DNA from: Haliotis cracherodii
Lineage: Eukaryota
Assembly: GCF_022045235.1 (NCBI RefSeq)
Contig: NW_027266343.1
Coordinates: forward strand, 51,616,134 to 51,680,133
Reading direction: 5' to 3'
DNA length: 64,000 nucleotides
Below, piece after piece: positions 2,735 to 60,200 of the stretch (positions are counted from its first letter, which is position 1; every line of letters starts with the position of its first letter). Under the pieces are notes generated by a model that had not been told where the DNA came from, searched no databases, and was given only the letters and a program-made list of their open reading frames with translations. The translations under genes were made by a program, and so were the position numbers.

Positions 2735-3940
2735 CTGGAGGAAACAGCAAACTCAGTTATCTCCAAAATATACAATAAGACCAATTATTGTTATTGATAT
2801 CATTATTATTAACGTGATCATTTTGGGGTACGGAAAGAAAAAAGTGAAAGGATGCAATTTTTCTGGTGTGCCATATGTCATCTGCACATCAGTACCCTGC
2901 AGTTCTAGATCTTTGACATACTTCATATTGATCATGGTTAGACACATCCTCCCGAGGCAAGAGAGTTAACTGACTATAAAAGTCCAGTTTCCACCCTTGC
3001 CGAACTAGGCTGTTATTATGGAGTCTATGCATAGTCCAATCAAAATCATGCAATGAAATCGAAATCCGGTTCGTAAACTGTCATGCATGTGCACCGCCAA
3101 TTCGTGGTCAACAGATATTTTCCAAATTTTTTCAAGTTTTTAATCAAGGTGCTCATGTGTTCTGATGCACTTTGCGATGTCAGATCCGTTTTATCACAAT
3201 AGAGATGTTGAATATCGATCAGATCGTCTTGACTGGGCATGTGATACAAGAGGTTGAATCTGATTGGTCCATAGTCCTGAGAGACATAGAAGGGACATAA
3301 CTAGTAATAGCCTCTGGTGGCGCTACGATCAAGCCCAGGCCTTCCAGCCTAGTTTGGCAAGGGTGGAAACTTGACTTTTAAAGTCAGTTAACTCACTTGC
3401 CTCGGGAAGATGAGATAAACACTACCACTGGTCCTTAGTCTGAGACCAGTAAAAGTCTAGAGGTATTTTCTTCTAAAATTTAGTCATTTTTCATAACCAC
3501 TCGTCAGAAATGAACTTTGGCTAGTTGCCACTGCATGACCAATTGCTCATGATTGATATACATAGTTCTCAAACTTGACCAAGGGTCCATTCCACAAAGC
3601 GATGGTTGTGCTAAGGTGACCATACCTTACCATTACTTTCGACTGTAATTCATCTTACTATGAAGGCTTTGTGGAACAGACTTTTGGTCAAGTTTGAGAA
3701 CCATCTAAATCTTTAGTTTTTTAGGTGGACTTTAAAAAACACTAAGATTGGTAAAATCTGTGGAAGTTTTTGTTTTTGGAAATCAACAGATGGGGAGACT
3801 ATGCATCATTGTAGAAGCATTAAGACCAATTCAGGAAATTGGTAAACAGTGGTAAGTTCCTCTGGGAATTGGTTGGAAATGCTCCAATCAGTCAAAGATG
3901 TGTCAACTAGAGAAACTGCCCTCCATTATTTTTTTAAGTG

Positions 3941-4569: not shown

Positions 4570-4726
4570 CTGGAACAACATCGCATCACATTACCACCAT
4601 CACTACCACCAGACTGACAAATAAGCATTCACTTAAATCAGTGTGCGAGTCAAAATGTTTGCCGCTAAAATGTGTTCCAAAAATCAAGGAATCATGTCAG
4701 TGTATTTTTTGTGGTACTAGTGTATT

Positions 4727-4965
4727 TTTACAAACCTGTAGAGGTTATGAATTCTCTGATGAAATCCTCCTTGGGGCACTTATTGCATTTTCCTGGCTCA
4801 AGAAAATCTACATGACATAGTTGTAACCATTTTCCTTAATAAAAATTGTTACCACACAAAAAACTTTGTTTTTGTCTGATATACGTCCACCCTTATGGTG
4901 CCTCACCCTCCACGGCGCGTCACGCCAAGGGAAGCAACTCTCACCCAAATCACTTTCCATATGTC
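4727..4965. repeat. DIRS inverted terminal repeat (element 3' terminus)
   Basis: ~200 bp near-perfect reverse complement of 10980-11180. Confidence 0.85.
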
Positions 4966-5003
4966 TAATGCTGACGGAATGTGGGGAGGCGGGTGGCCGT
5001 GCC

Positions 5004-5097
5004 CCAAGGAGGATTTCATCAGAGAATTCATAACCTCTACAGGTTTGTAAAATTCTCTTTCAGATTAAATCCTCCTTGGGGCACTTATTGCATCAAG
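5004..5097. promoter_or_regulatory. DIRS internal complementary region (ICR)
   Basis: 5004-5058 is the reverse complement of the outer ~55 nt of the left ITR (4729-4782). It is followed directly by an exact copy (5059-5097) of the reverse complement of the outer 39 nt of the right ITR (11157-11195). In element orientation the ICR is therefore complementary to the joined termini. Confidence 0.75.
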
Positions 5098-5561
5098 ATA
5101 GACTCCTAAAGATAATCTAGGAAGTGGCATCCGTCAGCAACAAGCGTGCATAAATACATCGTATTTTGATTATTTCAATGAATAAACAAGAGTTCAATAA
5201 ATGGAACCAACCTTATCGTGAGGCACCACCGTCGAAAGGCGGGGGCTGGAGACAGGGCGTTATCGACCATACACCATGAAAAGAGCCATTCTTTGTGGCT
5301 TATCATATCGAGAACTCGAGACACACACACCCCCCACCCCCCACACTTTTTTTGAACAAGTGATATTGGGGCACAGATCACGAGAGCCTATAAACCCGCA
5401 CAGAGCTAGGCCAGAGGGTCCCCGTAATCGAAGGAGTGCATGTGCAAATACGATGATTATCGAGTGGTAATGGCTGGTATTGTATCGACCGTAGAAGATA
5501 AAATCCGGACCGTTACTGAGCAGTGTTATAACCGGTCCGGGCGGTCTAAAATCTCGAAGGC

Positions 5562-6722
5562 TCAATCGGCTAGAGATGTAGAACTTTGCCCAGTTCGGAG
5601 AACTGACTGACCAAACCGAGCACGCTCGCTTGAGTGTTTGTCGAGTTGGTAATGTTTGATGAACGTGCTCGGCTGGCTCCAAATAGCCGCGGAGCAGATC
5701 TCCTCAATGGGCAGAGCCGCGGCATACGCTTGTGTCGTAGCCACTGCTCTAACCGAATGAGCCTTCAACTTGGTAGGGGGGTCCCTGCCTTGAAGTGTGT
5801 ACGCCGTACATATAGTAGAGACTATCCACCTGGAGATTGTTTGTTTGCTCGCAGGTGAGCCAGCCTTCCTACCGCCATAACAGCAAAATAGTTGATTATC
5901 CTTACGGATACCCTTAGTTCTGCTGATATAGGACTTAAGGGTCCTGCGGACATCCAAGACATGAGCATGTCTTGTAGTGGTCCCCGACGAAGAAGGCTGT
6001 GAAAGAGCAGGTAGCTCAATAGGAGCCGTCACGTGGAAGGCGTGTGCGACCTTAGGACGGTAAGAGTCCGGCAGGCGAATACTGACCCTGTCCCGGTGAA
6101 AGACAGTTAGTTCGGGATCGGCTGACATTGCGTGAATGTCGCCTACCCGTCTGCCGGACGTTACCGCCACAAGGAACGCCGTCTTCCAGCTCAACAGCTG
6201 AAGAGAGAGAGACGACAGATCCCGAAAGGAAGGACCGGACAGCCAATCAAGAACGATTGACAATTCCCAAGGGGGACTGATCCGCCGGACAGGCGGTCGG
6301 ATCCTGTCCACACCTGCTAAAAAACGCTGCACTAATGGGTGCGCACCCAAAAGTGCCCCGTCGACGGGGACGTGAAAGGCAGCGATAGCTGTAGAGTACC
6401 CCCGGACTGTCGATGCGGCCAGGCCGACATCTAGTCGCGACTGGAGGAACTCAAGTACGACTACGAGATCTGCAGAAAAGGGATCTGCAATCCCTCTATC
6501 GACACACCAGCGCGCATAGCAGGCCCATCTATCCTCGTACTGAACGTTTGTCGAATCCCTCCGCGAAGCCAGTATTGTGTCTGCAACTCGTGCAGGAATA
6601 CCGCTCTCCTGGAGGCGATTCCGGACAGTGGCCAAGCCACCCACTGAATCCTGGGATTCGGGTGGAGGGCCTCGTTCTGGGATAGGAGGTCCGGTCGTAA
6701 AGGTAATAGAACAGGAGCACAA
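5562..6722 (-). CDS. DIRS tyrosine recombinase (386 aa); overlaps the Pol 3' end in another frame
   Basis: N-terminal core-binding-like region, then catalytic HSVRAVATTQA (H-x-x-R) and the KHYQLD Tyr nucleophile; overlapping ORF arrangement typical of DIRS. Confidence 0.8.
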   Translation of the reverse strand: MCSCSITFTTGPPIPERGPPPESQDSVGGLATVRNRLQESGIPARVADTILASRRDSTNVQYEDRWACYARWCVDRGIADPFSADLVVVLEFLQSRLDVGLAASTVRGYSTAIAAFHVPVDGALLGAHPLVQRFLAGVDRIRPPVRRISPPWELSIVLDWLSGPSFRDLSSLSLQLLSWKTAFLVAVTSGRRVGDIHAMSADPELTVFHRDRVSIRLPDSYRPKVAHAFHVTAPIELPALSQPSSSGTTTRHAHVLDVRRTLKSYISRTKGIRKDNQLFCCYGGRKAGSPASKQTISRWIVSTICTAYTLQGRDPPTKLKAHSVRAVATTQAYAAALPIEEICSAAIWSQPSTFIKHYQLDKHSSERARFGQSVLRTGQSSTSLAD

Positions 6723-8337
6723 GTAGTCGCGCAGGCTGAGTGGCTAGCTGAGACAGGACCTTGGAAATCAGAGGTACTGGGGGGAATGCCCACAGAATTC
6801 TGTCCGTCCAATCTAGCTGGAAGGCGTCCGGTGCCACCGACCTCGGGTCGGGGACTCGGGAGCAGAACGTTGGTGTCTGGTGATTCACCCCAGACGCAAA
6901 CAGATCCACCTGGAACGACCCGTATAACTGGGAGATAATCCCGAATATCCCCGGGTCGAGCCTCCACTCGTGAGGAGCGAGGATCCGGCGAGACAGAGCG
7001 TCCGCACGGACGTTGTCTACCCCCGGGAGATAAACAGGTAGCACCCTGATAACGTGTGAGTCGCACCATAGGAGGAACTGCCACGTCTCTTGGAGAAGCG
7101 ACGGAGACACCGTTACCCCCTGCTTCCGGATGTAAGTCATCGCCGTTTGGTTGTCCATCTCTAGACGCACCACTTGGCCACGAAGCAGATCCAGGAAGCG
7201 TTGGAACACCAACCTGACCGCTCTCAGTTCTAGCACATTGATATGCAGTTTGATCTCCTGCTGGGACCATAGTCCCGAGGCAGTGTGATCGTTCAGAACG
7301 CCTCCCCAGCCGGAGAGTGACGCGTCTGTTTGAACTGTGAGAGACGGCACGGGAGTGTCGAGGGGGAGCCCCCGGGACAGATTCCCGACCTCGGTCCACC
7401 ACTGAAGGTGTGCATTGAGCCACTGCGGAGTCTCGAGAACAGTCTCGAGATCTTCCGAGTTCACCCAAAGTCGACGGAGCGCTTGTTGAATGGGTCTCAT
7501 TCTCAAGCGCGCCCGCCAAACCACATCCACTGTCGCCGCCATGTTGCCCAGTAACTGGAGCCATGTACGAGCAGTGTGACTGGCGGACAGAAGGAACTGG
7601 GAAGTAACACTTCTGACCTTGGTAATGCGATCTTGTGACAGAGATACAATTCCGCTCACCGTGTTGAAATTCGCCCCTAGGAAGACTAGATTCTGAGTAG
7701 GGCTCAGATCTGACTTCTTGAGATTGACTATCCACCCTAGAGTGATCAGAATATCTATCACTTGTTGTGTAGCTATCTGACTCAGGGATTGCGATAGAGC
7801 TCTTAGTAACCAGTCGTCGAGGTACGGATGGCAGAACCGACCTTTTGACCTGGCCACTTGGGCGGGAATCAACATCAGCTTGGTGAACACCCTCGGGGCC
7901 GTAGCGATCCCGAATGGTAGAACCCTGAACTGATAACACCTCCCGTCGAAAGAAAACCTGAGGTATTTCTTGAACTCGGGGTGTATGGGTACGTGGAGAT
8001 AGGCGTCTTTTAGGTCTATTGACGTTAGCCATTTTCCGGTCTCGACAGCTGAGATCACCGAGCGCAGTGTCTCCATCCTGAAGGACGGTACCTCTATAAG
8101 TTTGTTCAGCCTTCTCAGATTGAGAATAGGCCTGAACCCTCCGTCTTTTTCGGTGACTAGGAAATATGTCGAGTAGAAGCCCTCGCTTTCCTGTCCCACG
8201 GGAACCGGTTCGATCGCAGCCTTCATAAGAAGTGCGTCGACCTCGGCACGGAGGAATTCCGCCCTCTCTAGGGTAGCAGGCACCGGAGTGTGCTTTATCC
8301 CGGAGAAGGGGGGCGGATGGTGTTTCCACCGAGGCAA
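6529..8337 (-). CDS. DIRS Pol: reverse transcriptase plus RNase H (602 aa)
   Basis: RT motifs FRPILNLRRLN, SIDLKDAYLHVP, FRVLPFGIATAP and YLDD; RNase H motifs TDAS..GWGG, NVLELRAV, DNQTAMTYI and VDNVRADALSR; no methyltransferase domain evident. Confidence 0.85.
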   Translation of the reverse strand: MPRWKHHPPPFSGIKHTPVPATLERAEFLRAEVDALLMKAAIEPVPVGQESEGFYSTYFLVTEKDGGFRPILNLRRLNKLIEVPSFRMETLRSVISAVETGKWLTSIDLKDAYLHVPIHPEFKKYLRFSFDGRCYQFRVLPFGIATAPRVFTKLMLIPAQVARSKGRFCHPYLDDWLLRALSQSLSQIATQQVIDILITLGWIVNLKKSDLSPTQNLVFLGANFNTVSGIVSLSQDRITKVRSVTSQFLLSASHTARTWLQLLGNMAATVDVVWRARLRMRPIQQALRRLWVNSEDLETVLETPQWLNAHLQWWTEVGNLSRGLPLDTPVPSLTVQTDASLSGWGGVLNDHTASGLWSQQEIKLHINVLELRAVRLVFQRFLDLLRGQVVRLEMDNQTAMTYIRKQGVTVSPSLLQETWQFLLWCDSHVIRVLPVYLPGVDNVRADALSRRILAPHEWRLDPGIFGIISQLYGSFQVDLFASGVNHQTPTFCSRVPDPRSVAPDAFQLDWTDRILWAFPPVPLISKVLSQLATQPARLLVLLFYYLYDRTSYPRTRPSTRIPGFSGWLGHCPESPPGERYSCTSCRHNTGFAEGFDKRSVRG

Positions 8338-8510
8338 ATGGCCATCCCTTAGAGTGGACAGGGTCCAGGGATTGGATGTGACTGTCTCCCATTCCTGCAG
8401 GAATAGAGCCAGTCGGCCGCCTACGGGGACATCCGGCTTGAGGCAGTGGACCCCGGCTGTCGGCAGTTCGATAACATGCGACCGTGGGTCCGCCCGGGGC
8501 TCTTCGGGCG

Positions 8511-10049
8511 CTAATGGGAACCCGATGGGTTCCCGGCCCCGCGAAAAGGCTGCTGGCCTCGACCAGCTGCCCTGCCCCGGCCCCTGCCTCTCTTGCTCCT
8601 CCCGGCGCCCTTACCTGAAGGAAGCGGCTGCTTCCAAGCAGGTGCAGACTTCTGACCCGGCGCATCAGCGTAGGAGGAAGCAAGTGGAGAGGTCCGCTTA
8701 CGCGGTTTAACGCATGGTACCTCCAACAAGGCCTTAGAATCCTTGATGGAGGCATACAACTGTGCGGCCTCTCGGACCACCTGCTGAGCCCCAGGGAAGA
8801 GGGTGGCACCCATCTTATATGGCAAAGCAAGTAGATCCTGGCGTGTGGAAGCCGAGTATTTGGATACCGACATCCACAGCCTGCGCATGCCCATGACTGC
8901 GCACATCATCTGCGAGGCACAGCTACGAATAGCGTCCCTGGCAAGATGACTATGTACCTCCGTCAGTTGCGCGGCCAACTCCGAAGAGTCGGCCGGCCCC
9001 TCTCCCGCTAACTCCCTCTGTACGGCCGACAGATAAGCGGAGTGTACGGACACCCGGAGCTGCTGACATGCGTTACGATATTGCTCCTCGAAGCAAACGT
9101 AAGCAGCCTTCAGCTCCGTACCGCACGCGGGAAAGGGTGGCAACCGCCGGCCCTGCTTGACCTTAGCCAAGTTGGGGGTCGAAGACCCCCCCAGGGTAAC
9201 GGAGGTCCAGACGCATTCGTCCACCACCGGTACCTCAAAATCACCATCCTCTGCTAACGGGTACCGCTTAATAAGTTCGGGCAGGTCGAACTTCCTGCGG
9301 GCACCCGACAACAGAGGATTGATAACTTCATGCACCAATGAGGACAGAATACGGAGCCGCACCTGGGGCGCCTTGCTCGGAGCAAAAGCGTCCCCCGGAA
9401 GGCGGAACTCAGTCGGATCCGACTGGGGCATAGGCGCAGCCACCTGAGGCAGTACCTGGACAATCTTGTCCCGTACATGCCTCAACGAGGAAACGAAGGA
9501 AAATGTTCCCGAGGTCTCCGAGTCGTCTCCCCCCTCCTCCATCCACTCCTCCTCTCTCGATTCCGAGCCGAAATTAATCGACTCTTCCCCGAGAGAAGAG
9601 GCAGACGAAGTCGGAAGGGGACGCCCGAAGGCCTGGGCCTTCGCATCCCCGGGCTGCACCCGGCCCGAAGCCGAGTCCCGGTCCCGAGGTGCCGGGGGTT
9701 CAAGGGAACCCACCTGGCTCTGGGCTAGCAATCCGCTAGAGGAAGCCTCGGCCTCGGAAGAGGCGTCTGGCTCCGCTAGGGAGAACTGTGCGTCGGTAGT
9801 GAACGGGCCAGTGCCCGCCACCCCTCCGCTGGGGAGCGACCTCGAGCCGGCGCCGAAGCCCGGTCTGAGATCGTCCCCGAGACCAAGTGGCCTGCCTCGG
9901 CCGACGCCGGGCATATCACAAGGTCTCGAAGCCGCGTCCGGCGCCGACAACGGGGAAGGCTCGGTCCGCATCTCCTCTCGGAGCTGAGACTTTACCTCCT
10001 CCATCATCGACGCCATCTGCGACCTCAACAAGGCAGAGATGTCTGCCAA
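8511..10049 (-). CDS. DIRS Gag-like ORF (512 aa; the track 'M' is a TTG, and the first in-frame ATG is codon 12)
   Basis: position upstream of the RT; coiled-coil-like N-terminus, Ser/Pro-rich middle, basic C-terminus. Confidence 0.6.
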   Translation of the reverse strand: MADISALLRSQMASMMEEVKSQLREEMRTEPSPLSAPDAASRPCDMPGVGRGRPLGLGDDLRPGFGAGSRSLPSGGVAGTGPFTTDAQFSLAEPDASSEAEASSSGLLAQSQVGSLEPPAPRDRDSASGRVQPGDAKAQAFGRPLPTSSASSLGEESINFGSESREEEWMEEGGDDSETSGTFSFVSSLRHVRDKIVQVLPQVAAPMPQSDPTEFRLPGDAFAPSKAPQVRLRILSSLVHEVINPLLSGARRKFDLPELIKRYPLAEDGDFEVPVVDECVWTSVTLGGSSTPNLAKVKQGRRLPPFPACGTELKAAYVCFEEQYRNACQQLRVSVHSAYLSAVQRELAGEGPADSSELAAQLTEVHSHLARDAIRSCASQMMCAVMGMRRLWMSVSKYSASTRQDLLALPYKMGATLFPGAQQVVREAAQLYASIKDSKALLEVPCVKPRKRTSPLASSYADAPGQKSAPAWKQPLPSGKGAGRSKRGRGRGRAAGRGQQPFRGAGNPSGSH

Positions 10050-10159
10050 AGACGGTGCAGGAGAGGGTGCAGTGATTGCGACGGGGACCCTAGAGCCTTC
10101 TCCCCCGGCCCCCGGGGAGGGAGCGGAGGAGACAGTCTCAGCTGCTTTTTTTCCCCTTC

Positions 10160-10507
10160 TTACTTTTTTAGATGGGGGGGGGGGGCGGTCTTTGCCGATC
10201 TAATGTCCACCCCCGCCTTCAATAGACCCTTAAAGTGTAAGAGGTCCACCTTCCTCTTTTTTTGCGCCCGTGGTGTAAATGCAACACAGATCGGGCATGA
10301 CCCATCGTCATGCCCGTCTTCGGCCAAACACTTTATGCAAGTATCATGCCTGTCTTGGGGGGGAATCGAGGCCGAGCACCCCGTACACAGTTTGAAGGTC
10401 TGTAAAAAAGACCGTAATTTTTGAGTTTGGCGGGAAGGGTAATAAAGTGTATCAGTGCGATTGAAAGATCGGAAAGATACGTGCATAAATTGTGCAACTA
10501 GAAGCAA
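10160..10507 (-). CDS. DIRS upstream ORF (115 aa) with a Cys/His motif and basic KKRKV; probably the N-terminal part of Gag, separated by a frameshift at the G12 tract
   Basis: CTGCSASIPPQDRHDTCIKCLAEDGHDDGSCPIC; ends at the G12 homopolymer (10174-10185). The gag frame is open upstream to ~10203 and has no ATG before the TTG at 10049. Confidence 0.5.
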   Translation of the reverse strand: MLLVAQFMHVSFRSFNRTDTLYYPSRQTQKLRSFLQTFKLCTGCSASIPPQDRHDTCIKCLAEDGHDDGSCPICVAFTPRAQKKRKVDLLHFKGLLKAGVDIRSAKTAPPPHLKK

Positions 10508-10979
10508 AGGCGTAATTTAGAATGCGATTGGTAACGCGATACTAACAGCCAATGTCGTAGTATAATTATAACACCAAAGTGGGCGTGTTACGCGCGAAGG
10601 TGTAAAAAACCCGTAAAAAAGGTAAGTGTAATTTAAAAATAAATAACACACCACCTTGGGTTTATTAAAGGAAAAGATTGTAGGCTAAAGCCCGATGATA
10701 TAACATTAAAAAACCCAAGCCGTTTTTGATGGCCCTGGTGTTACATGTATCATACGTGGCACTACAAAATGGACGCTACTACGGCCTTTGTTTTCAAAGG
10801 TATCGTACACGTGTCACATAATTACAACTTTATAACTTCACAATGCGATGTATTACGCCTTTGCATGAAAGAAATGTACCATACATACAGTTTGGTCTGC
10901 CATGGTTCTTGTACGAACGATTATCTTGTACTTTGTTTTGTCTTGAAAAAAACAGCACGTCTGTCTTAGTCAGATGACA

Positions 10980-33146: not shown

Positions 33147-36100
33147 TGTGTCGTCAATATAGACTTCCGCTGAAAAAAAAGTAAAATAAGATGAGTTTGC
33201 TTTTCGTGGCATCTGTTTTTCAGTGACTGAGTAAGTCCGTAAGTCTGCTAACTTTGCAGCATAGATCCAATATGAGTTTATAATGTTGAAGCATATGGTA
33301 TTTGTCTTCCCAATGTACCTCATTTGGCATTGGTAGCAAACAAAACCAGAGTGTGAACCAGACAATCCGGTGACTGGTGTTTAGAAAAACGTCCCACATC
33401 ATTGAGGTACAATGACAACTGAATGGGCTTCACAGAATGGGCTTCACATATTATACCCATGCGGGAAAAATCAAACATGGTTTTTGGCATGTCAAGCGAT
33501 TACTTCAACCACTATAAAGACTACATAGACGAGAGCTGCGCTTGAGTCCGGCAATCAAGACATGACCCTACATACCCCATAGCGGCTATCAGCTGCAGAC
33601 TACTTCACTGCCCTTAATGTGGTTGAAGAATATTACATTTAATATACATAAATAACATGAATTAAATTATAGAATAACATTAACAAATCTTTTAGTCATT
33701 GACCATGCACATACTATACATTACGGCTTACATTTAGTACATTGGAATTAATACATTGCTGGAGTCTTTCTGAAGCTAGTACAAGCATGGCAATAAGATG
33801 ACACAATAGAATCACTTAAGGAAGTCAATTGATTAATTTGGTTAGAGAAGTACATCTCGACACTTAGCTCTAGAACCACAACTGCAATCATCAGTAATAT
33901 TAATGAACGCCACTTACTTATATTATCCATAGGGAGTTTCTGGGCTAAACACCGGTTATGATCAAAACAAGCGAGGTATAGTTCAGTCCAGAAGCAGGAA
34001 AGTAATGTTATTCCTTTGTGGAGCTCTCTTGATTATCGGACGAGAAACTATTATCAAAACTAGGTTTCGAATGTATTTCTCGTCTGACACCACGCAATTG
34101 TTTCTTACCTTACTCTAACAACTGTTCAGTTGTATTCGTGCAATCCAGTTAAAATCCCTGACACAGCAAAACATGTAAATACACGCGATTAACCGCGACT
34201 GTTGAAATATTTTGCAATAAGTACTTAGCTGGTTAGAGTTACTTCCCTTTGTTTATACTTGCCCAAGCTCCTCCACAGCGCGTGACACCTTCGTTACACT
34301 CTCGGGCGAACGGGCTATCGCTGGGAAGAGCTTAATTGATACTTCTTCACGTATGGTCAACGCTTTTATTTATTGGGGATCTTTCCAGTAGGGGCGTATG
34401 TATAGACTTGCACATGTATATAAGTAAATTATTATTTTAATTCATATTTCCTAGATTATACAAATGATAAGAAAAAGTTGACCCATGAAAAGACTGACGC
34501 CCTCAGTCCTTGTAGGCCGGCTTATCTAGACTTGCCAAGGACTTGGATCTTGTCACTAGGGGCCATAGATATCCATGGTATAGTCTTTAGGCAAGGCTTG
34601 AGTAATCACGACACGGTTCAACTCCGGACCATTCGTCACCACTCGCCCCTTTCCGTAACGGGCTTGTCCCGGAAAAAACACCGAGTTGGTCACGAATGAC
34701 TCCGGCCGGGTTCTGTCTCAAACAATGAGTATTAGTTTAAATCATAATTCCTATATTACATAAATATTAAGAACAAGCTGTTCCTGCAAAAGACTGGTGT
34801 CCATAGATATACTGTCCTCTTATATTCACGTACTTATCTAGACTAATTCTTTCTTTCTTTTCTTCGAAAGAACGTTAATACTCTTCTGCTATTTTCATAT
34901 GGAATCAAGCAAACTAGACTTGGTTAGTTTGATCTAGGATTGCCTAGGCTTTTAATAAAAACATTTCTAAAAATATATATATTCCACAGTCATGGCGCCG
35001 GACTATAGGACTTATCATTCAGTACTGTATACATTTTAGGTTAGTGAACAAGGTTCTCGCTGTATAGAATGTAGCTGAGCTACCTGGTACCCTCCGCGCT
35101 GTTCGGCGACGATCGTGGTGCCTCATGGTTAAAAAAAACTTTGTTTGTGCACATGTAAGCCTTTGAAGACGGGAACCTTGTTATTGTCCTGTAATAGGCG
35201 ATGTGTGGTCAGTCTCGCTGACTTGGTTGATACATGTCATCGTATCCCAACTGCGTGGGTCGATGCTCATCATGTCAATCACTGGATTGTCTTGTCCAGA
35301 CTCGATTATTTACAGACCGCCGTCACATTGCTGGACTTTTGCTGAGCGCTGCGTTAAACAACAAGCAAAACGGTAGTGCTGTCGGACACTGCTAGCGAAA
35401 ACGACACCAGTCATTGTTGGAGAAAACAGACGCGTTAAAAAAAACGACAAAGGAAATGATAGTAATTGATTATAAGTTATTCTGTGTTGCAAACATTTAT
35501 AAAGTAGCACAGATTATTTGATATTTTAAAAAACAAAACTTCATACCTGAACAACAAAAATGATATGTACGTTATTTTGCATAATTTTTATATATACCGT
35601 ATTGCCGGGTTGTGATAGTACAGTAAAAAAAAACCTGTACGCTCTAGGTCCTACAACAGACGTCTGTAGCGACCAGAACTGGGATACGACCAATCCCCAG
35701 ACCCCAAGTTAACCAAGTTAACAGTACAGAGATATTGTATGGTTTCCTTTACATTATATATTAAAAGACAATTTAACCGATTTGCTTTCAAACATGTTCA
35801 CACCACAAGTCATCTGAACACGCTCCGTATTATAGATCCTCCCGGCATGACGATGATGATGGTGATGATGATGATGATGATACTTTCCAGTGAAAAGTTG
35901 GTTACAAGAACGCTGTGTGCTAAGGAGTCATCAAGATGCAAAGATGAAGAGGAAGGAATTAAAGCTAAAAACAACTATTGTCATGAAGCCGTTACAAAAC
36001 ACATGTCAAGAGATAATCGAATCACTTTGTAAAAAAAACTTTCTCAAAATACTAAAAACATCATAAAGCACGAAGTGCTTTAAAAAGATAACATTACAAC

Positions 36101-44768: not shown

Positions 44769-46717
44769 AACAAAAGCATTTAAACTTATAATTATTGCCT
44801 TTGAAATTTTGTGCAAGTCTAATATTACCAGTTTAATGTAAATTATTTTAATGTATAGTATGACATATTTTGCTCCCAAACTAGACTTACACAAGTCTCT
44901 AAGGCAATAATTAATAGTTTAAATCATAAGTTCTAGATTATGTAAATACTAAGAACAAGATGTCCCTATAAGAGACTGGAGTACTGTCCACATATCTAGA
45001 CTTGCCTATTAGGAGGGTTGTATTATTACACATCCGTGGTCTTTTCTTTCAGTACAGCCTTGGAGCAAGACTACTCTATACCACTGAAATAAAATTAATC
45101 TTAAACTGAAATTGAATGTGAACGTCGTTGTGGTACACTGACGCACAAACATAGAGGTCAAACATGACCAGCTCCTCATGGAGTAGAGCCTTGGGGTGAG
45201 TGAGTTGAATTTAACGCCGTTTATATCTCGACGTGTCAGCTTGATGTGGGAGGAGGGCCCGAAGTGATGCAGGTCTCAGACGTCTAGCACTCTGATGTAA
45301 CCTACAAGCACGGGTCTGGTGCTGACAAACCTAGAAACATAATCGGGGCGAACCGGGATTCAAACCCACAATCATAGGTTTCCGGTGTGCCCAAGGGAAG
45401 AGCCCTGGTAACATGGTGGTGTGTTGTAGTTACTACGGATTGTGTTGTTCGATGTAAATAAAACAGTTGGTCCACTGTTATCATAACACACGTAATTTGT
45501 CAGGAAAGGAATCAGTCGTATCAGCGATCATACATGTGTATAAATTTATGGAAATCACCAAGACTCTTTAATCAACATCGACACACCACACTTCATTTGG
45601 CCTTGTCAGCAAATCGCAGTAAGCTTTTAAATCGTCACAATGTGTACAACATAATATCTGACTTGATCATTATAATTATATATGGCCCGTGAAGATCCGG
45701 GGTAGAATAGGTCTTCAGCAACCCATGCTTGCCGTAAAAGGCAACTATGCTTGTAAAAGGCGACTTTCGCGATCGGGTGGTCAGGCTCGCTGACTTGGTT
45801 GATGCATGTCATCGATCCCAATTGCGTGGATCGATGCTCATGTTGTCAATCACTGGATTGTCTGGTCCAGACCACCGTCATATAGATGGAATATTGCTGA
45901 GTGCGGCGTTAAACAACAAACAAACAAACATTATATATGCCGAACAAAAATTGTTAGGGATCATGATAATGTTTTGAATATTTATTTTGTAATGACAAAC
46001 TCTGTAATTATCTCAAGGGCTCGGCAAATGTACGCTATAAATCCCTAGATCCATTACTGTGGTTCTCGCGATCTCAAATTACCCAACCTTGATTTTCATT
46101 CGCCAATTTGATTTGCCAAAGTATACACAATTTATGGATACCATCTTTATTTTACTGTAAAGGCGACGTTTCGGTATAGATCGGATAGATCCTTATACGG
46201 TTGTCACGCAAGGATAAATATGATTTGATTTGCTACGCCACTCTAACTAACTGACCTTTAAGATTGCGAGTTGGCGATATCAACAACATGGCGACAGGTT
46301 CCACTCATTCATATAGGGTTTGCGAGATATTCAACATTGAAAAACTATCTGACACGCAAAAGAAAGCCCTAAAAATTTGTTTGATGGATAGGGTGAATTC
46401 ATTTCCATCATGACTGGCAGTGGCAAGTTCTCCTGTACATATTTACCTTTTCTTTATTTCGATGTTTCATTGGTCGTTAAAATGTTAGCGAAAGTCAAGG
46501 ACGGATAGGATGCTGCTGCCCCCCCCCCCCCCCCCCCCCCAAAAAAAAATAGTCATGATCCCTAACTTTTTTTTGTCCAGTATACATTTAAATTAAACCG
46601 GATACATCAATCCAGGGGCGAGCAGGAGACATTCATCGTAAATTACCGAAGACTTCAAAATGGAACAATGACCTTCAGTTTTCCCCAGACTGTTGTTACA
46701 ACAGGGCAATATTTCCT

Positions 46718-48157: not shown

Positions 48158-48790
48158 TAATATGCCAGTCTTTTACCTTGTCTTTATAGACAAGGGTATA
48201 GGCTCAGTTAAGCCAGGGCAGTGAGGGAGAATGTTTAGCTTGCAGTGTTTGTTTGTTGTTTAACGGCGCACTCAGCAATATTCCAGCTATATGACGGCGG
48301 TCTGTAAATAATCGAGTCTGGACCAGGCAATCCAGTGATTGATATCAAGAGCATCGATCCACACAATTGGGATACGATGACAGCTTGCAGTGAGGTCAAA
48401 CAATCTTTGTCTCTCAATGTCCACAGTACAAAGGTCTGATGAGATGCTCCCCGAGGCTCTCCGAGGCGCTGGGGTAGGGTAGGAAGGGAGGGACAGGTAA
48501 GCTGTAGGTACAGTGTGTGCTGTGTGAGGGGTAGGGAAGGGGAAGGACAAACTAAGCGGTAGGGGCGGGTACAGTCGCCGTTGACAGCCGTTAAATGAGT
48601 AGAAAGCAGTTAAACGAGGCGGTTGCTTGTACAGATAGAATAGATTCGCAATCACGTACAAATGAAAAAAAATAATGTCGATGCTACTGAAACTATAATT
48701 TATTTAAGAAGAAACAATTGAATGTATCCATACGACGTGTGGCACAAATAACCGTTCTCGAATGTATTCAGTTGTCATGTATATGATATT

Positions 48791-52214: not shown

Positions 52215-52247
<33 letters not shown>

Positions 52248-52250: not shown

Positions 52251-54035
52251 CACACACACAAAAAAAAAACCTTTAATATTAGATAGTATTAAATGATTAG
52301 TTCATTCATAATTTTACGTGCTAACATGCTAACATGGTAGGGATTGCGTATTCAAAGTGTCATCAGATGCAACCCCCAGTTCCCCCCCCCCCCCCCCCCC
52401 CCCCCTGATCCGCCACTCCTTACTTTAATACGAGTGCTGACGGTTGATGTCAAATACCCAAACTCTAAAATGAGGATATCAAGTGACATGCTCCAGGCAG
52501 TTCACATTACATTACGTGAAGGGGAGAGTGAGGGAAAGGGTTGGGGTGGGTGGGGGTGGAAACTCGGTACTGTGGTTTGGGGGAGCGGTGGGGTGGGGGG
52601 TGCTGTGAGGGGGAGGGGGCGCGATTAGTTCAGGTCAGGAAATGGTCGTAAGTGTCAGGCTAAGGAATGGAGATGTTTATCTTGATATTCAGTCATTTAG
52701 ATTCCGAGATGTGTTGATGTTCATGTGTTATAGATGCTGGATTTACAACACCCCGCGCTGGCTTGCCACCTCGTGAAGGGGGCGTGGGGATGGGGGGTCT
52801 GTACTGGGACGGCAGCGTGTCGGACATATACCAGATCCAAACACCGGCTTCGAACTGTCTCATTCATTTAATAGTCAAGAAACAATTAACGCTTGCCACA
52901 TGAAAAGAGATATGCTTATCGCTCCCCTGAAACAAGTAATGCGTTTGTTAGTAGAGAAATTTGTTTGTTGTTTAACGCCGCACTCAGCAATATTCCAGCT
53001 ATGTGACGGCGGTCTGTAAATAATCGAGTCTGGACAACACAATCTAGTGATTGATATCAGGAGCATCGGACAACACATTGGGGATACGATGAAATGCACC
53101 AACTAAGTCACCCGATCCCGTTAGTCGCCTCTGACGACAAGCATGGGTTTCTGATGACCTATACTAACCCGGATCTTCACGGGTCTCGCAAATAGGCGAG
53201 CATATCCTACGCCAAGGTGGCACCCATGTTTAATGGTTACTAAAAGGAAGCCTTATGTACTTCATATAGGTATCATAGTTGTGTTTTCGACCTTTAAGTT
53301 GCAGTGTTTCGACGACTGTTTTCAGCCTAGTAACGTTTTGATAACGTTTTTTAATATTTAGTCAAATCCAATTTACTTTTGCAGAGCAGTTTATAAAGTC
53401 TTGAAGTCTTATATACTACTCAAAAGAAGTTAAGAATCACCTGATTCTTTCATATTACAATAGTGAATATCTCATGTCATGACAGATTAACTTTACCATT
53501 ATGAAAGAATCGGGTGATCCTTAACTTCTTTTGAGTAGTATATTACACAATGCATTTCTCTCCTTGCGTCTATTTTTGTAATGTATATTGATTTCATGTA
53601 GACTGTTATTACACAATACATCTTCTTTTATCAGAAAGTATATTTTCTTGTGCTGATGTTGTTTTCAGCTAGCTTGACTAGCCTTGTTAATAATCTTGAC
53701 AGGTTTGATTAAATTAAACTAAATGCAGATATCCTACAGGTTTTGAGGTGATAAAACACATATTTCACAGTCGAGCTGCTTGACTACACAAACTCATATA
53801 ATTAGTGAGATGTTGACTTTTTATAAAAGTGATGATTGATGAATAAAGTAAGTACAACCACAATGAATTATGTGATTTAATAAATATGTTTGTTTGTTAG
53901 GTTTCATATATATTTTCCCGTTAGGTCATGTAGCAATTGTAGCGTTCATGTATTTGTTTTATAAAACATGAGGCCAAAGAATTTTCAGGAACCAGTTATA
54001 TTTTTATACATGGTGTAACATGGTCTGTCTCAGAC

Positions 54036-57200: not shown

Positions 57201-60200
57201 CGCCCCATCCCACCACAACGACCTGTTTTATGGGGTGTTTAAGCCATTATGCCACCAGGTGTTCCAGGTTGTATTTGAGACGTTCACAACAAAGATGAAT
57301 GGAGATGCAGTCACATTGTAGTGCAATATGATCTGACGTCTATTTTTAGCGTTATGCTAAAACGAAAGTTGGCTGGTGAAGGACCAGAGTATTCAAAATA
57401 GAATAGTGTTAATACTCATTATAATCGAGGACAGAACCAAAATGGGATCAAGTAATCCAAAGCTGACACCGATGATGTTGGATTTGTGAACCTTCTGCTT
57501 TGTCTGAGCCAATTCCAAAACACCGATATGTTTGATCGCTCAACACTTCAACAGCAGCGCCCCTGAGATGTCAGGCTGGCAAGTTGACCTGTGACCTCAC
57601 GCGAGAACAGATCTCACTGCATGGTGTTGACTAGGACTAACATCTAGCCTCTGAAATGCACAATATTTTTACAGAAAAAAACAGTTGTTAAATTCTAGTT
57701 ATGAAATATAATAAAAAGGAGACCAAGGACTTTCCCTCATTTTCAGAGACTAAACAAATCTGCAGAGCTATAAATGCTTTGAATTTCACAAATTAAAATA
57801 TTATAGACGTGCATAGGATGCATTGGATATATTTGTTTCAAGGTCTACATGACTAGGTGTTGACAAACGCCCCCAGCATCACGATTTTGTTTCCATGTTA
57901 AACTCTGTATATAAATTGCTAGTATAGGAACCAGCATTAGAACATTCATTAGATGCTGTGTTAAAACAACAGAAATACGCACAATTTTGAATACCAGTGT
58001 GTGAATATGGCTTAACGTCGCTTTTAGTAGTCATCTTGAAATATGAAAAGACACTAGGAACGCGACTGATGCTTTTTACCCATATGGGGAATCGAACCCA
58101 CATCTCATGCGTAGCTAACGATCTACCCACTAATTTACCCCGCAAGTTGTGTCACTGAAAGGGAAAACATGAGTAGAACGTCTGGTTCAGTGAGCCATGG
58201 CCCTCTGATAAGTGCAGATAAAAATCTCGAGGACAAAAATTGATTACCAGTTCAATATGGCCTGTCTTTATCATACAAACGACGAACAAAACAATCTTAA
58301 AAGAGACTTGCTCCATTGTCAGCTGCACCCGTCTGAAAATACAACGACTTGATTGTAACAGAATATCCAATGTCGTCACTTGTGTAGAACTTCGTCGATT
58401 CGGACATCAAGCACGTACATGTACTTGGGTAGCCTGGCATTTAGTGCCGGAAATATAGTTATATTATTCAAATATATATTTACAAAATAACAAAAGTAAA
58501 ATCCAAATGAGCCCAGACAAATGCCAATTACCTGGAGCTGATGCAATCGAGACTTACCCAATCATTCTAGATTTGAGTTTTTAATTTATTCTCTAGAGCC
58601 TCTAAGGTTGCCATGGAGGTTAACGGGTTGAATGAGTGAATTGGTTTGGTTTAACGCCGCCTGTGGCAATATCTGACATATAACGCGAGACCGCTAAAGG
58701 AAAAACTACAGGATCCCAATCAGGGTGAATCATGACGCTTAATGGGTGACGTTGCTTTCAACAGCATGGTTGATGATGAACTTATTTAATTAAGAATTGA
58801 CTTCGACATTTTTTTTCGTTTACGGAGGTATAATCTGGCGTGCACACCATGTAATTAAGCTACGCGGGTAAACCTAGAAACGTCAACGCAAATAAGTCTG
58901 ATTAATCCGTTTTTCAACATTACCAAAACCAAAAAACTGTAGATAACTGTACGAAATCAGCGACCGACATTGTTCAACGCAATAATGCAAAACAAGAACA
59001 CTCTATTATGATCCAATAAGGTTGGTTGGTTGGTTTGCTTGCTTTGTTGTTTAACGCCGCACTCAGCAATATTCCAGCTATATGACGTCGGTCTGTAAAT
59101 AATCGAGTCTGGACCAACAATCCAGTGATTAATATCATGAGCAATCGATGACATGCATCAACCAAGTCAGTGAGCCTGACCACCAGATCCCGTTAGTCGC
59201 CTCTTGCGACAAGCATAGTCACCTTTTACGGCAAGCATGGGTTGCTCAAGACCTTTTCTACCCCTGAATCTTCACGGGTCTTCAAAAAGGAAAAGTCCGG
59301 TAGTGGGCGAGGTTAATTGCTGGATAGCGAAATCGATAGCTTTACACTCATACAAGTGAGTAAGTGACATCGTACACTGCAGGCCAGAGATGTTGGGACA
59401 GACAGACCTGTTGTCCTAAATCTTGGTGTCGACAACGTTGTCAAGGACACGGCATCATACCTCGTCTAATGTAGTGACCAGTACGGAACTACGAACGTTC
59501 TCACGAATTACGAATTACAAAATAATTAATCTTGTGCTTAAGTCATTACGATTGTTGCTACCCACTTTTTGCGACGGGCAGACGACATGTCTATCGTTAC
59601 TGACGCAGCCAAGGCAGACGACTTCCGGTTCCTGATGCATTTGACAGTTTGTGCCGTCCAGACGACCTTGACCCCTGACCTTGGAATCCCTGATGGCGTC
59701 AGAAGAGAAAAGGACCCCGTGGGTGTGCACCCGTATGACGGGCAGCCGGACACAGTTTGAGGGGACCACGCTCCGGACACACACAGCAGACCGGTGACCA
59801 CGGCGCTGTACAGGAGTAACATGGCCCAACTTTCGCTGACCGATATAGATGTGTGTTGCCTCCTGATGAATGTCCTTTATCACTCCCTTGTCATTCGACT
59901 CATCTGATACGTGCCAATTGAGGTCACGTGAGAGTGATATCAATTGCGGACGATTAAACACCCCAACGACAATGTCGGTGAGGAACAGGTGTACTAGTAA
60001 TGCAGGCTTATTTAAGCCAGTCATGTGTACGGTTGTACTCTCTGTACAGTCACAAGTAACGATGCTGATAACGATGGACAGGTTGAAGTGCATCCCCATT
60101 GAATTGCCACTGACTGTGATGTAACTGTTGATGAGACGAGCGTACTATCCGCATTTCACGTGTCCAGATGATGCACGATCATGCCTTAAACCGTTGGCGG

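Follow-up and report, generated by a model that had tools for sequence, protein, structure and literature searches.

In a defective DIRS1-like retrotransposon of the abalone Haliotis cracherodii, the N-terminal part of gag is cut off from the rest of the gene by a run of twelve cytosines, which is probably an unprogrammed homopolymer indel in a Gag whose proposed normal start involves a mini-exon and an intron. The element lies in a stretch of 64,000 nucleotides (contig NW_027266343.1 of assembly GCF_022045235.1, positions 51,616,134 to 51,680,133), hereafter the window, in whose numbering all window positions are given. It is a copy of a tyrosine-recombinase (YR) retrotransposon that is complete in length and defective. 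The gag of intact relatives encodes, in one frame, a Cys6His2 module, a linker with a PPSK motif and basic residues, and a LAP2alpha-like domain. In this copy the proline-codon tract of 12 C, instead of 13 or 10, would lead to a stop four codons later and a product of 84 aa, and would leave about 550 remaining gag codons out of frame. What the tract represents is a commonplace inactivating lesion, or perhaps an error of base calling, and not a recoding device.

All coding in the element is on the minus strand, so that the run of G on the plus strand is a run of C in mRNA sense. The features at the break are as follows.

10174-10185, minus strand: C12 homopolymer (G12 on the plus strand), the frame-break site within the conserved PPSK motif, at its Pro codons
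10160-10162, minus strand: premature stop TAA, 11 nt beyond the C run
8511-10173, minus strand: remaining gag sequence, read in the -1 frame, with the LAP2alpha-like C-terminal domain, a basic tail rich in RG and the stop at 8511-8513 (Pfam LAP2alpha, homologue alignments)

No other homopolymer of at least 10 bases occurs inside the element, and about 0.002 runs of 12 bases would be expected by chance in 6469 nt. The open reading frame (ORF) that enters the run from upstream, here called the Cys/His ORF (10160-10507, minus strand), has 115 codons, is TTG-initiated and has its earliest ATG at 10486. It encodes C-x2-C...H-x2-C-x2-C...H...C-x2-C and then KKRKV, and its translation reads ...CTGCSASIPPQDRHDTCIKCLAEDGHDDGSCPICVAFTPRAQKKRKV...TAPPPHLKK*. 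The gag frame (...DRPPPPSKKVRRGKK...LADISALLRSQM...) is -1 relative to the Cys/His ORF and is open from 10199 through the C run, with its earliest ATG at about 10016, codon 12 of the 512-codon ORF 8511-10049 (minus strand). As the sequence stands, the Cys/His ORF would give 84 aa if spliced (see below) and has 115 codons as listed. The two frames fuse if one C is added (C13) or two are removed (C10).

Much of the preliminary description of this region, made from the sequence before any searches, is borne out by these data. A G12 run does separate a Cys/His-motif ORF, ending just beyond it, from gag; the gag frame is indeed open through the run and lacks an ATG until codon 12; and a change of a single base in the run would join the two frames. 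The run was described there as G12; with all coding on the minus strand, its mRNA sense is C12. A fused Gag of about 650 aa had been suggested; the fusion stands, and the protein would measure 658 aa if begun at the in-frame ATG at 10486, and 634 aa (C13) or 633 aa (C10) if begun at the proposed spliced start.

Judged from alignments, the Cys/His ORF is no gene of its own: it corresponds to the conserved N-terminal Cys6His2 module of Gag. The 115-aa product of this ORF, searched alone against a set of 5.8 billion proteins, had no match. With one C added, the fused query retrieved P0001 (621 aa, from a Logan assembly), to which it aligned at 38% identity and 95% query coverage, without a break from the module across the run to the C-terminus. 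P0001 matches Pfam LAP2alpha at 26 bits (cut-off 25), and an exhaustive HMMER search with it returned 44 proteins, many of which match the N-terminal module only. The window Gag was 44% identical to the P0002 family in one high-scoring segment pair (HSP) that covers the full length, and tblastn of the repaired window Gag against related loci gave single in-frame HSPs over module and gag in L001, L002-L006, L008 and L009. An uninterrupted ORF of module and gag is present in six related elements (P0001, P0002/L002-6, L008, L009, P0011 and P0013). The relatives read through the equivalent site in one ORF, which confirms the earlier proposal of a single Gag whose two parts, the Cys/His ORF and gag, have been split at the homopolymer.

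At the exact position of the window's run, homologues carry the motif (D/V/T)PPSK followed by basic residues, and its Pro codons correspond to the C run. PPSK is present at this site in P0001, P0002, P0003, P0009, P0011, P0013 and P0017; examples are given below with the repaired window sequence.

P0001: TPPSKLNK
P0002: VPPSKAKK
P0003: DPPSKRK
P0011: VPPSKAKK
P0013: DPPSKVK
Window, repaired: APPPPSKKVRR

The window sequence matches homologues in the Cys/His frame up to ...TAPPP and in the gag frame from PPSKKVRR on. Because the upstream frame matches as far as the prolines and the downstream frame matches from the prolines onward, the frame change is confined to the C tract. The C run at this site is C8 in L001 and C5 in L002 and L008, and there is none in L007 and L009. 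Homologues are in frame and carry PPSK at the site, and Gag was therefore ancestrally encoded by one ORF. The window tract thus reads as an expanded run of Pro codons whose length is off by -1 or +2.

The start of this Gag appears to lie elsewhere. No ATG is conserved in the module frame: L001 has a stop four codons upstream of the module, and L008 and L009 have a TAG immediately next to it, this acceptor TAG being itself an in-frame stop. In every lineage a pyrimidine tract ending in AG stands directly before the (S/T)FK or FK codons. About 390-490 nt upstream of the module, the window, L002/3, L007, L008 and L009 all have an ATG with 4-7 sense codons followed by GTATGT, and the phase is 0 throughout. 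The putative introns of these five lineages measure 489 nt (window), 390, 403, 410 and 421 nt. The proposed features in the window, the mini-exon and intron loci and the predicted spliced N-termini are the following.

10889-10903, minus strand: proposed coding part of gag exon 1, ATG GCA GAC CAA ACT (MADQT), ATG at 10903-10901 in the Kozak context aaccATGg
10400-10888, minus strand: proposed 489-nt GT-AG intron, phase 0, with donor GTATGT at 10888-10883 and acceptor ttttttacAG ending at 10401-10400
Window, mini-exon and intron at 10400-10903 (minus strand): predicted MADQT-TFKLC
L002, mini-exon and intron at 3022-3432: predicted MSEKQAT-SFKSC (L002/3)
L007, mini-exon and intron at 7483-7909: predicted MSTSEAQT-FKSC
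L008, mini-exon and intron at 82-515: predicted MPKATQKT-FKKC
L009, mini-exon and intron at 125-569: predicted MAEKGDGS-FKQC

Under this proposal, Gag would start at ATG 10903 in the mini-exon and be spliced over the 489-nt intron to exon 2, which starts at 10399 with the codons for TFK. The 5' sequences of the window copy and L007 can be aligned only at the outer inverted terminal repeat (ITR) and at a 17-nt island, CAAACTGTATGTATGGT, which spans the junction of exon 1 and the donor and is 100% identical between the two. GC content of the putative intron is 38%, versus 53-62% in exons, and 8 ATGs occur in it, with 6-9 stops per frame. A GT donor, an AG acceptor with its pyrimidine tract, frame-compatible exons and conservation across lineages are thus found together in five lineages. 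The predicted N-termini also resemble those of distant module-bearing proteins (MATSSFKKC, MSALSFKKC and MASFKQC). In one of these distant proteins, P0026 from a vertebrate-type locus (L011), ATG and module adjoin each other in genomic sequence, and the putative intron is therefore specific to the present clade.

The comparison of five lineages thus suggests that Gag starts at ATG 10903 by way of splicing. The earlier observation that gag has no ATG before codon 12 was correct, but the answer to it is a different one: the start apparently sits in a 15-nt mini-exon 489 nt upstream. We also tried ATG 10486 as the natural start and rejected it; it lies in a segment rich in AT, stops and ATGs, and in relatives the module is preceded by a stop at a distance of 0-4 codons. 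For the DIRS1-like clade of abalone genomes and marine metagenomes as a whole, we consider it likely that Gag is translatable only from spliced RNA, with a mini-exon of 5-8 codons and a conserved intron of 390-489 nt. All the genomic copies that were examined have kept the putative intron. If the replication template is unspliced and the Gag mRNA spliced, the element would need to partition its transcripts between the two. The predicted spliced proteins of L002 and L009 were absent from the protein collection.

Splicing-dependent expression is familiar from other retroelements, such as retroviral env mRNAs, the Drosophila copia gag mRNA and intron-retaining Penelope-like elements. As in these, the replicating RNA would stay unspliced, so that the intron is inherited, and the spliced form would be an mRNA. 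The difference is that here Gag itself would need the spliced RNA, with an exon 1 of ATG plus 4-7 codons, so the proposed arrangement is the reverse of the retroviral one. We found no description of a natural intron in DIRS or YR retrotransposons in the searchable literature, which does not include the older founding papers, and the word 'intron' is absent from the overview of Piednoel et al. 2011 (PMC3266345).

What broke the frame can be judged in part from the rest of the copy, because pol carries a lesion of its own.

6529-8610, minus strand: pol frame (reverse transcriptase, RNase H and Dam-like methyltransferase), disrupted at 6718/6717 (RVT_1)

Relative to L002, L003, L007, L008, L009 and L010, 64 nt are deleted at the junction 6718/6717. 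The deletion, which is flanked by CTCCT microhomology and lies in the methyltransferase (MT)-like region, takes out the conserved APLWxxxSWFPxxLRFLAxP and throws both pol and the long YR ORF out of frame. Because the copy is independently defective, an ordinary inactivating indel is favoured as the origin of C12. Homopolymer indels and microhomology deletions are typical products of reverse-transcriptase or replication slippage, and the indel in gag could have arisen by slippage either in reverse transcription or in later DNA replication. The related copy L007 in Haliotis asinina (CM074537.1, ~8060-8100) has a frameshift of its own about 30 nt upstream of PPSK, with G9 versus G8 in L009, which yields ...AGGGYLGSGPSI* in place of ...AGGDIW..DPPSK. 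Since L007 is broken nearby at a different run, homopolymer lesions seem to be common in these copies.

Several results weigh against an indel in a gene with a spliced start. The splicing is deduced from comparative sequence. No same-family sequence was found among exact-protein look-ups of the window gag, the Cys/His ORF, the YR ORF and the closest H. cracherodii reverse transcriptase (RT), P0050, and a DNA pattern spanning the run had no match in JGI metagenome contigs. The copy is otherwise young-looking and clean, with 96/96 matching positions between the internal complementary region (ICR) and the termini and no other stop in ~630 gag, 627 pol and 386 YR codons. Because the rest of the copy is clean, a homopolymer miscall is a real alternative, and our confidence that the indel is biological instead of a base-calling error is moderate.

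In the case of a sequencing or assembly error, the genome would have C13 (or C10) with gag intact, and the 12-mer would have been miscalled by one base. Twelve-base homopolymers are classic miscall sites, and the frame break is confined to what is the longest homopolymer of the element. Such an error would also fit a gag that is otherwise intact over ~630 codons and the youth of the copy suggested by the ICR, and L007, which comes from another abalone assembly, likewise breaks at a homopolymer. Nevertheless, the microhomology-flanked deletion of 64 nt in pol cannot be a homopolymer miscall, so that gag need not be intact either, and runs much longer than the present one (C22, C24 and C32) appear to be resolved elsewhere in the window. 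We therefore regard an error at the run as possible but clearly the less likely origin. The three longer C homopolymers lie at 46519-46540 (C22), 52216-52247 (C32) and 52382-52405 (C24), and long C/G runs are tolerated by the genome or the assembly. The preliminary description had offered frameshift, pseudogenisation or sequencing error as causes; of these, mutation (pseudogenisation) or sequencing error is favoured and programmed slippage disfavoured.

Programmed recoding, whether by -1 frameshifting of the ribosome or by a polymerase that stutters at the C run, would produce a short Zn-module protein together with a full-length Gag. Long homopolymers are known slippage sites, and programmed -1 frameshift or transcriptional slippage sites occur in retroviral gag-pol, insertion sequence (IS) elements and the paramyxovirus P gene. 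Like these, the window has a homopolymer at the junction of two frames and would need a shift of -1 (or +1 nt in the RNA), for which an all-C run allows re-pairing of tRNA-Pro. However, module and gag form a single ORF in the six related elements, relatives have C5, C8 or no run at this position, and the all-C run offers no canonical slippery heptamer, as C CCC CCC does not conform to X XXY YYZ (Y = A/U). The 114 nt downstream fold no better than shuffled sequences (z = -1.1; 23/200 shuffles fold as well), the 0-frame tail beyond the run consists only of HLKK* and is not conserved, and L007 breaks at a different run in the opposite sense. The window site thus differs from programmed -1 sites in lacking a conserved slippery sequence, a stimulatory structure and conservation among relatives, and in lying inside gag instead of between gag and pol. 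Neither a conserved homopolymer nor conserved products in both frames, as transcriptional slippage would entail, were found. Recoding is therefore very unlikely to account for the run.

That the region holds two genuine genes, a small Cys/His protein and a Gag starting at the internal ATG at ~10016 (codon 12 of the 512-codon ORF), is scarcely credible: both ORFs are open as listed and the 115-aa ORF alone found no homologues, but in homologues the two are fused, the gag-frame stretch PPSKKVRRGKK...LADISALL, which leads from the run to codon 12, can be aligned with homologues and is hence coding, and the module ORF has no conserved start, with stops 0-4 codons upstream of the module in L001, L008 and L009, so that the in-frame homologues in effect refute this reading.

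The module itself is well defined by alignment.

10286-10396, minus strand: Cys6His2 module (F-K-x-C-x2-C...H-x2-C-x2-C-L...H...C-x2-C), N-terminal Gag domain (alignments)
~10244-10267, minus strand: basic KKRK patch after the module

Across 25-29 aligned sequences, residues F2, C5, C8, H18, C21, C24, L25, H30, C35 and C38 are invariant, and D16 and R49 nearly so. The six Cys and two His are eight potential ligands, which would be enough for two Zn ions. In an AlphaFold2 model of the module (mean predicted local distance difference test score, pLDDT, of 89), short beta elements and small helices surround the ligands and are followed by a long helix. The invariant Cys/His set and the compact predicted fold are both what would be expected of a zinc-binding domain. 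No Pfam family covers the module, and it matched no known fold. In the account of Szitenberg et al. 2014 (PMC4157794), citing Poulter & Goodwin 2005, zinc-finger motifs occur in the Gag of Pat1-like and some other YR retrotransposons. As far as that account goes, a Cys/His motif is a recognised and variably present character of YR-element Gag, and the window Gag is alike in this respect. A Cys/His motif in such a Gag is thus not new, but this particular module appears to be uncatalogued.

One carrier of the module is annotated as a host protein. P0011 (XP_046554219.1, 'mucin-17-like' of Haliotis rubra, 1822 aa) is 53BP1-like: it has tandem Tudor and BRCT domains, and its residues ~38-148 comprise the Cys/His module of DIRS Gag together with the PPSK linker. 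Either the gene model is chimeric or the 5' end of a DIRS element has been exonised.

The element that carries the run has the following further parts, the Cys/His ORF being located within it between the 5' ITR and gag.

4726-11194, minus strand: DIRS1-like retrotransposon copy, 6469 nt (boundaries from the ITRs and the ICR complementary to both termini; domains)
10976-11194, minus strand: 5' ITR, the element beginning with ATT at 11194 (arm pairing)
4726-4965, minus strand: 3' ITR (arm pairing)
4999-5093, minus strand: ICR (complementarity to both termini)
5562-6722, minus strand: YR ORF, 386 aa (78.6% identity to the YR part of the 1019-aa ORF of L002)

Over 211 nt the ITR arms 4755-4965 and 10976-11186 are complementary at 208/211 positions, a divergence (3/211) that does not give the age of the copy, because the two ITRs of a DIRS element need not derive from one template. 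Over its outer 125 nt, the ITR shares 72-75% identity with those of L002 and L007. The ICR is complementary to the 3' terminus in one part (4999-5052 with 4726-4779, 54/54) and to the 5' terminus in the other (5052-5093 with 11153-11194, 42/42). ITRs combined with an ICR that matches both termini are a hallmark of DIRS1-like retrotransposons, and the RT, the ITRs and ICR, the YR and the LAP2alpha-like gag together identify the element as such.

A GC-rich block at ~5.5-10.2 kb contains four minus-strand coding units, namely gag, the RT ORF, the YR ORF and a long overlapping ORF. Pfam searches matched RVT_1 in the RT (E = 6.6e-21), whereas the matches of gag to LAP2alpha (E = 4.8e-4) and of the YR ORF to Phage_integrase (weak, E = 0.0058) were below cut-off. 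The RNase H match in the RT ORF was likewise weak, as was the Dam-like methyltransferase match after it (Pfam Dam, E = 0.011), in a region that is kept in relatives and partly deleted here. The R...HxxR...Y residues of the YR ORF (R...HSVR...KHY) can be seen in its sequence. The Pfam search of the element found no protease and no DDE integrase family, and the Rfam search of the whole element had no match. Identity of its pol to the DIRS pol ORFs of L008, L009 and L010 is 68-73%, and the closest named RT relatives are from H. cracherodii (86% identity over half of the query) and H. asinina (63-82%). The pol frame is also open for ~100 nt upstream into the end of gag (8511-8610, minus strand), with no ATG there.

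In the +2 frame relative to RT, a long ORF (6461-8830, minus strand) extends across the whole RT/RNase H/MT ORF with 0 stops in 627 codons. Synonymous-codon shuffles of the overlap (n = 2000) had 19 stops on average and at least 8, and none of the 2000 was stop-free. In L002 (5279-8338) the +2-frame ORF continues into YR to form the 1019-aa ORF, and in the window the 64-nt deletion parts it from YR.

Among described elements, the copy most resembles DIRS1-like retrotransposons (order DIRS) such as the mollusc families LgDIRS and AcaDIRS (PMC3266345), with which it shares ITRs and an ICR to both termini, the terminal ATT, the order gag, RT/RNase H/MT-like, YR, and the lack of a protease or DDE integrase. 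An ATT terminus is tabulated for mollusc DIRS families by Piednoel et al. 2011 (PMC3266345). The window copy differs in being defective, by the gag C-run frameshift and the 64-nt pol deletion. It also differs in its long +2-frame ORF over RT, because long ORF overlaps, although present in half of the described DIRS1-like elements, are reported to be absent in Mollusca (PMC3266345). The LAP2alpha domain of TMPO and ZNF451 derives from a DIRS1-like gag (Abascal et al. 2015, PMC4495291), and the window Gag's C-terminal half matches Pfam LAP2alpha. To this the Gag of the element adds the Cys6His2 module and the PPSK/basic linker, which are not discussed in PMC4495291.

The flanks of the element contain repeats and a host gene. 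A short repeat resembling a short interspersed element (SINE) abuts the 5' end at 11196-11285 and recurs at no fewer than 15 other sites (e.g. 48250-48338, 59044-59128, 52962-53050 and 35279-35367). For the copy at 48244-48338 the alignment reaches into the opposite flank as well, over its last 7 nt, a weak hint of an empty site in the repeat on which we do not rely. Just outside the element, a minisatellite at 11570-12288 consists of 35 copies of the 20-nt unit CACAAACACACATTCTGAAA and yields spurious long Cys/Val-rich ORFs. Exon-like host-gene ORFs at ~13000-17100 (minus strand) include a P-loop GKPGSGKTSLVV and a DUF4062/TEP1-NWD-like N-terminal motif, and this gene is probably of the NACHT/STAND type.

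The homopolymer itself is of minor importance: lesions of this type commonly inactivate transposon copies, and at most it flags a position for a check of the reads. Of wider interest is that, in this DIRS1-like clade, Gag begins with a Cys6His2 module that is well conserved and has no Pfam model. If the start codon lies in a separate mini-exon, as the five lineages suggest, automatic ORF callers would truncate or split this Gag. The conserved intron offers a testable hypothesis on how mRNA and replication template are kept apart in a little-studied order of retrotransposons. Together, the module and the intron would improve the annotation of DIRS elements in mollusc genomes, and may explain chimeric host gene models such as the 53BP1-like protein of Haliotis rubra.

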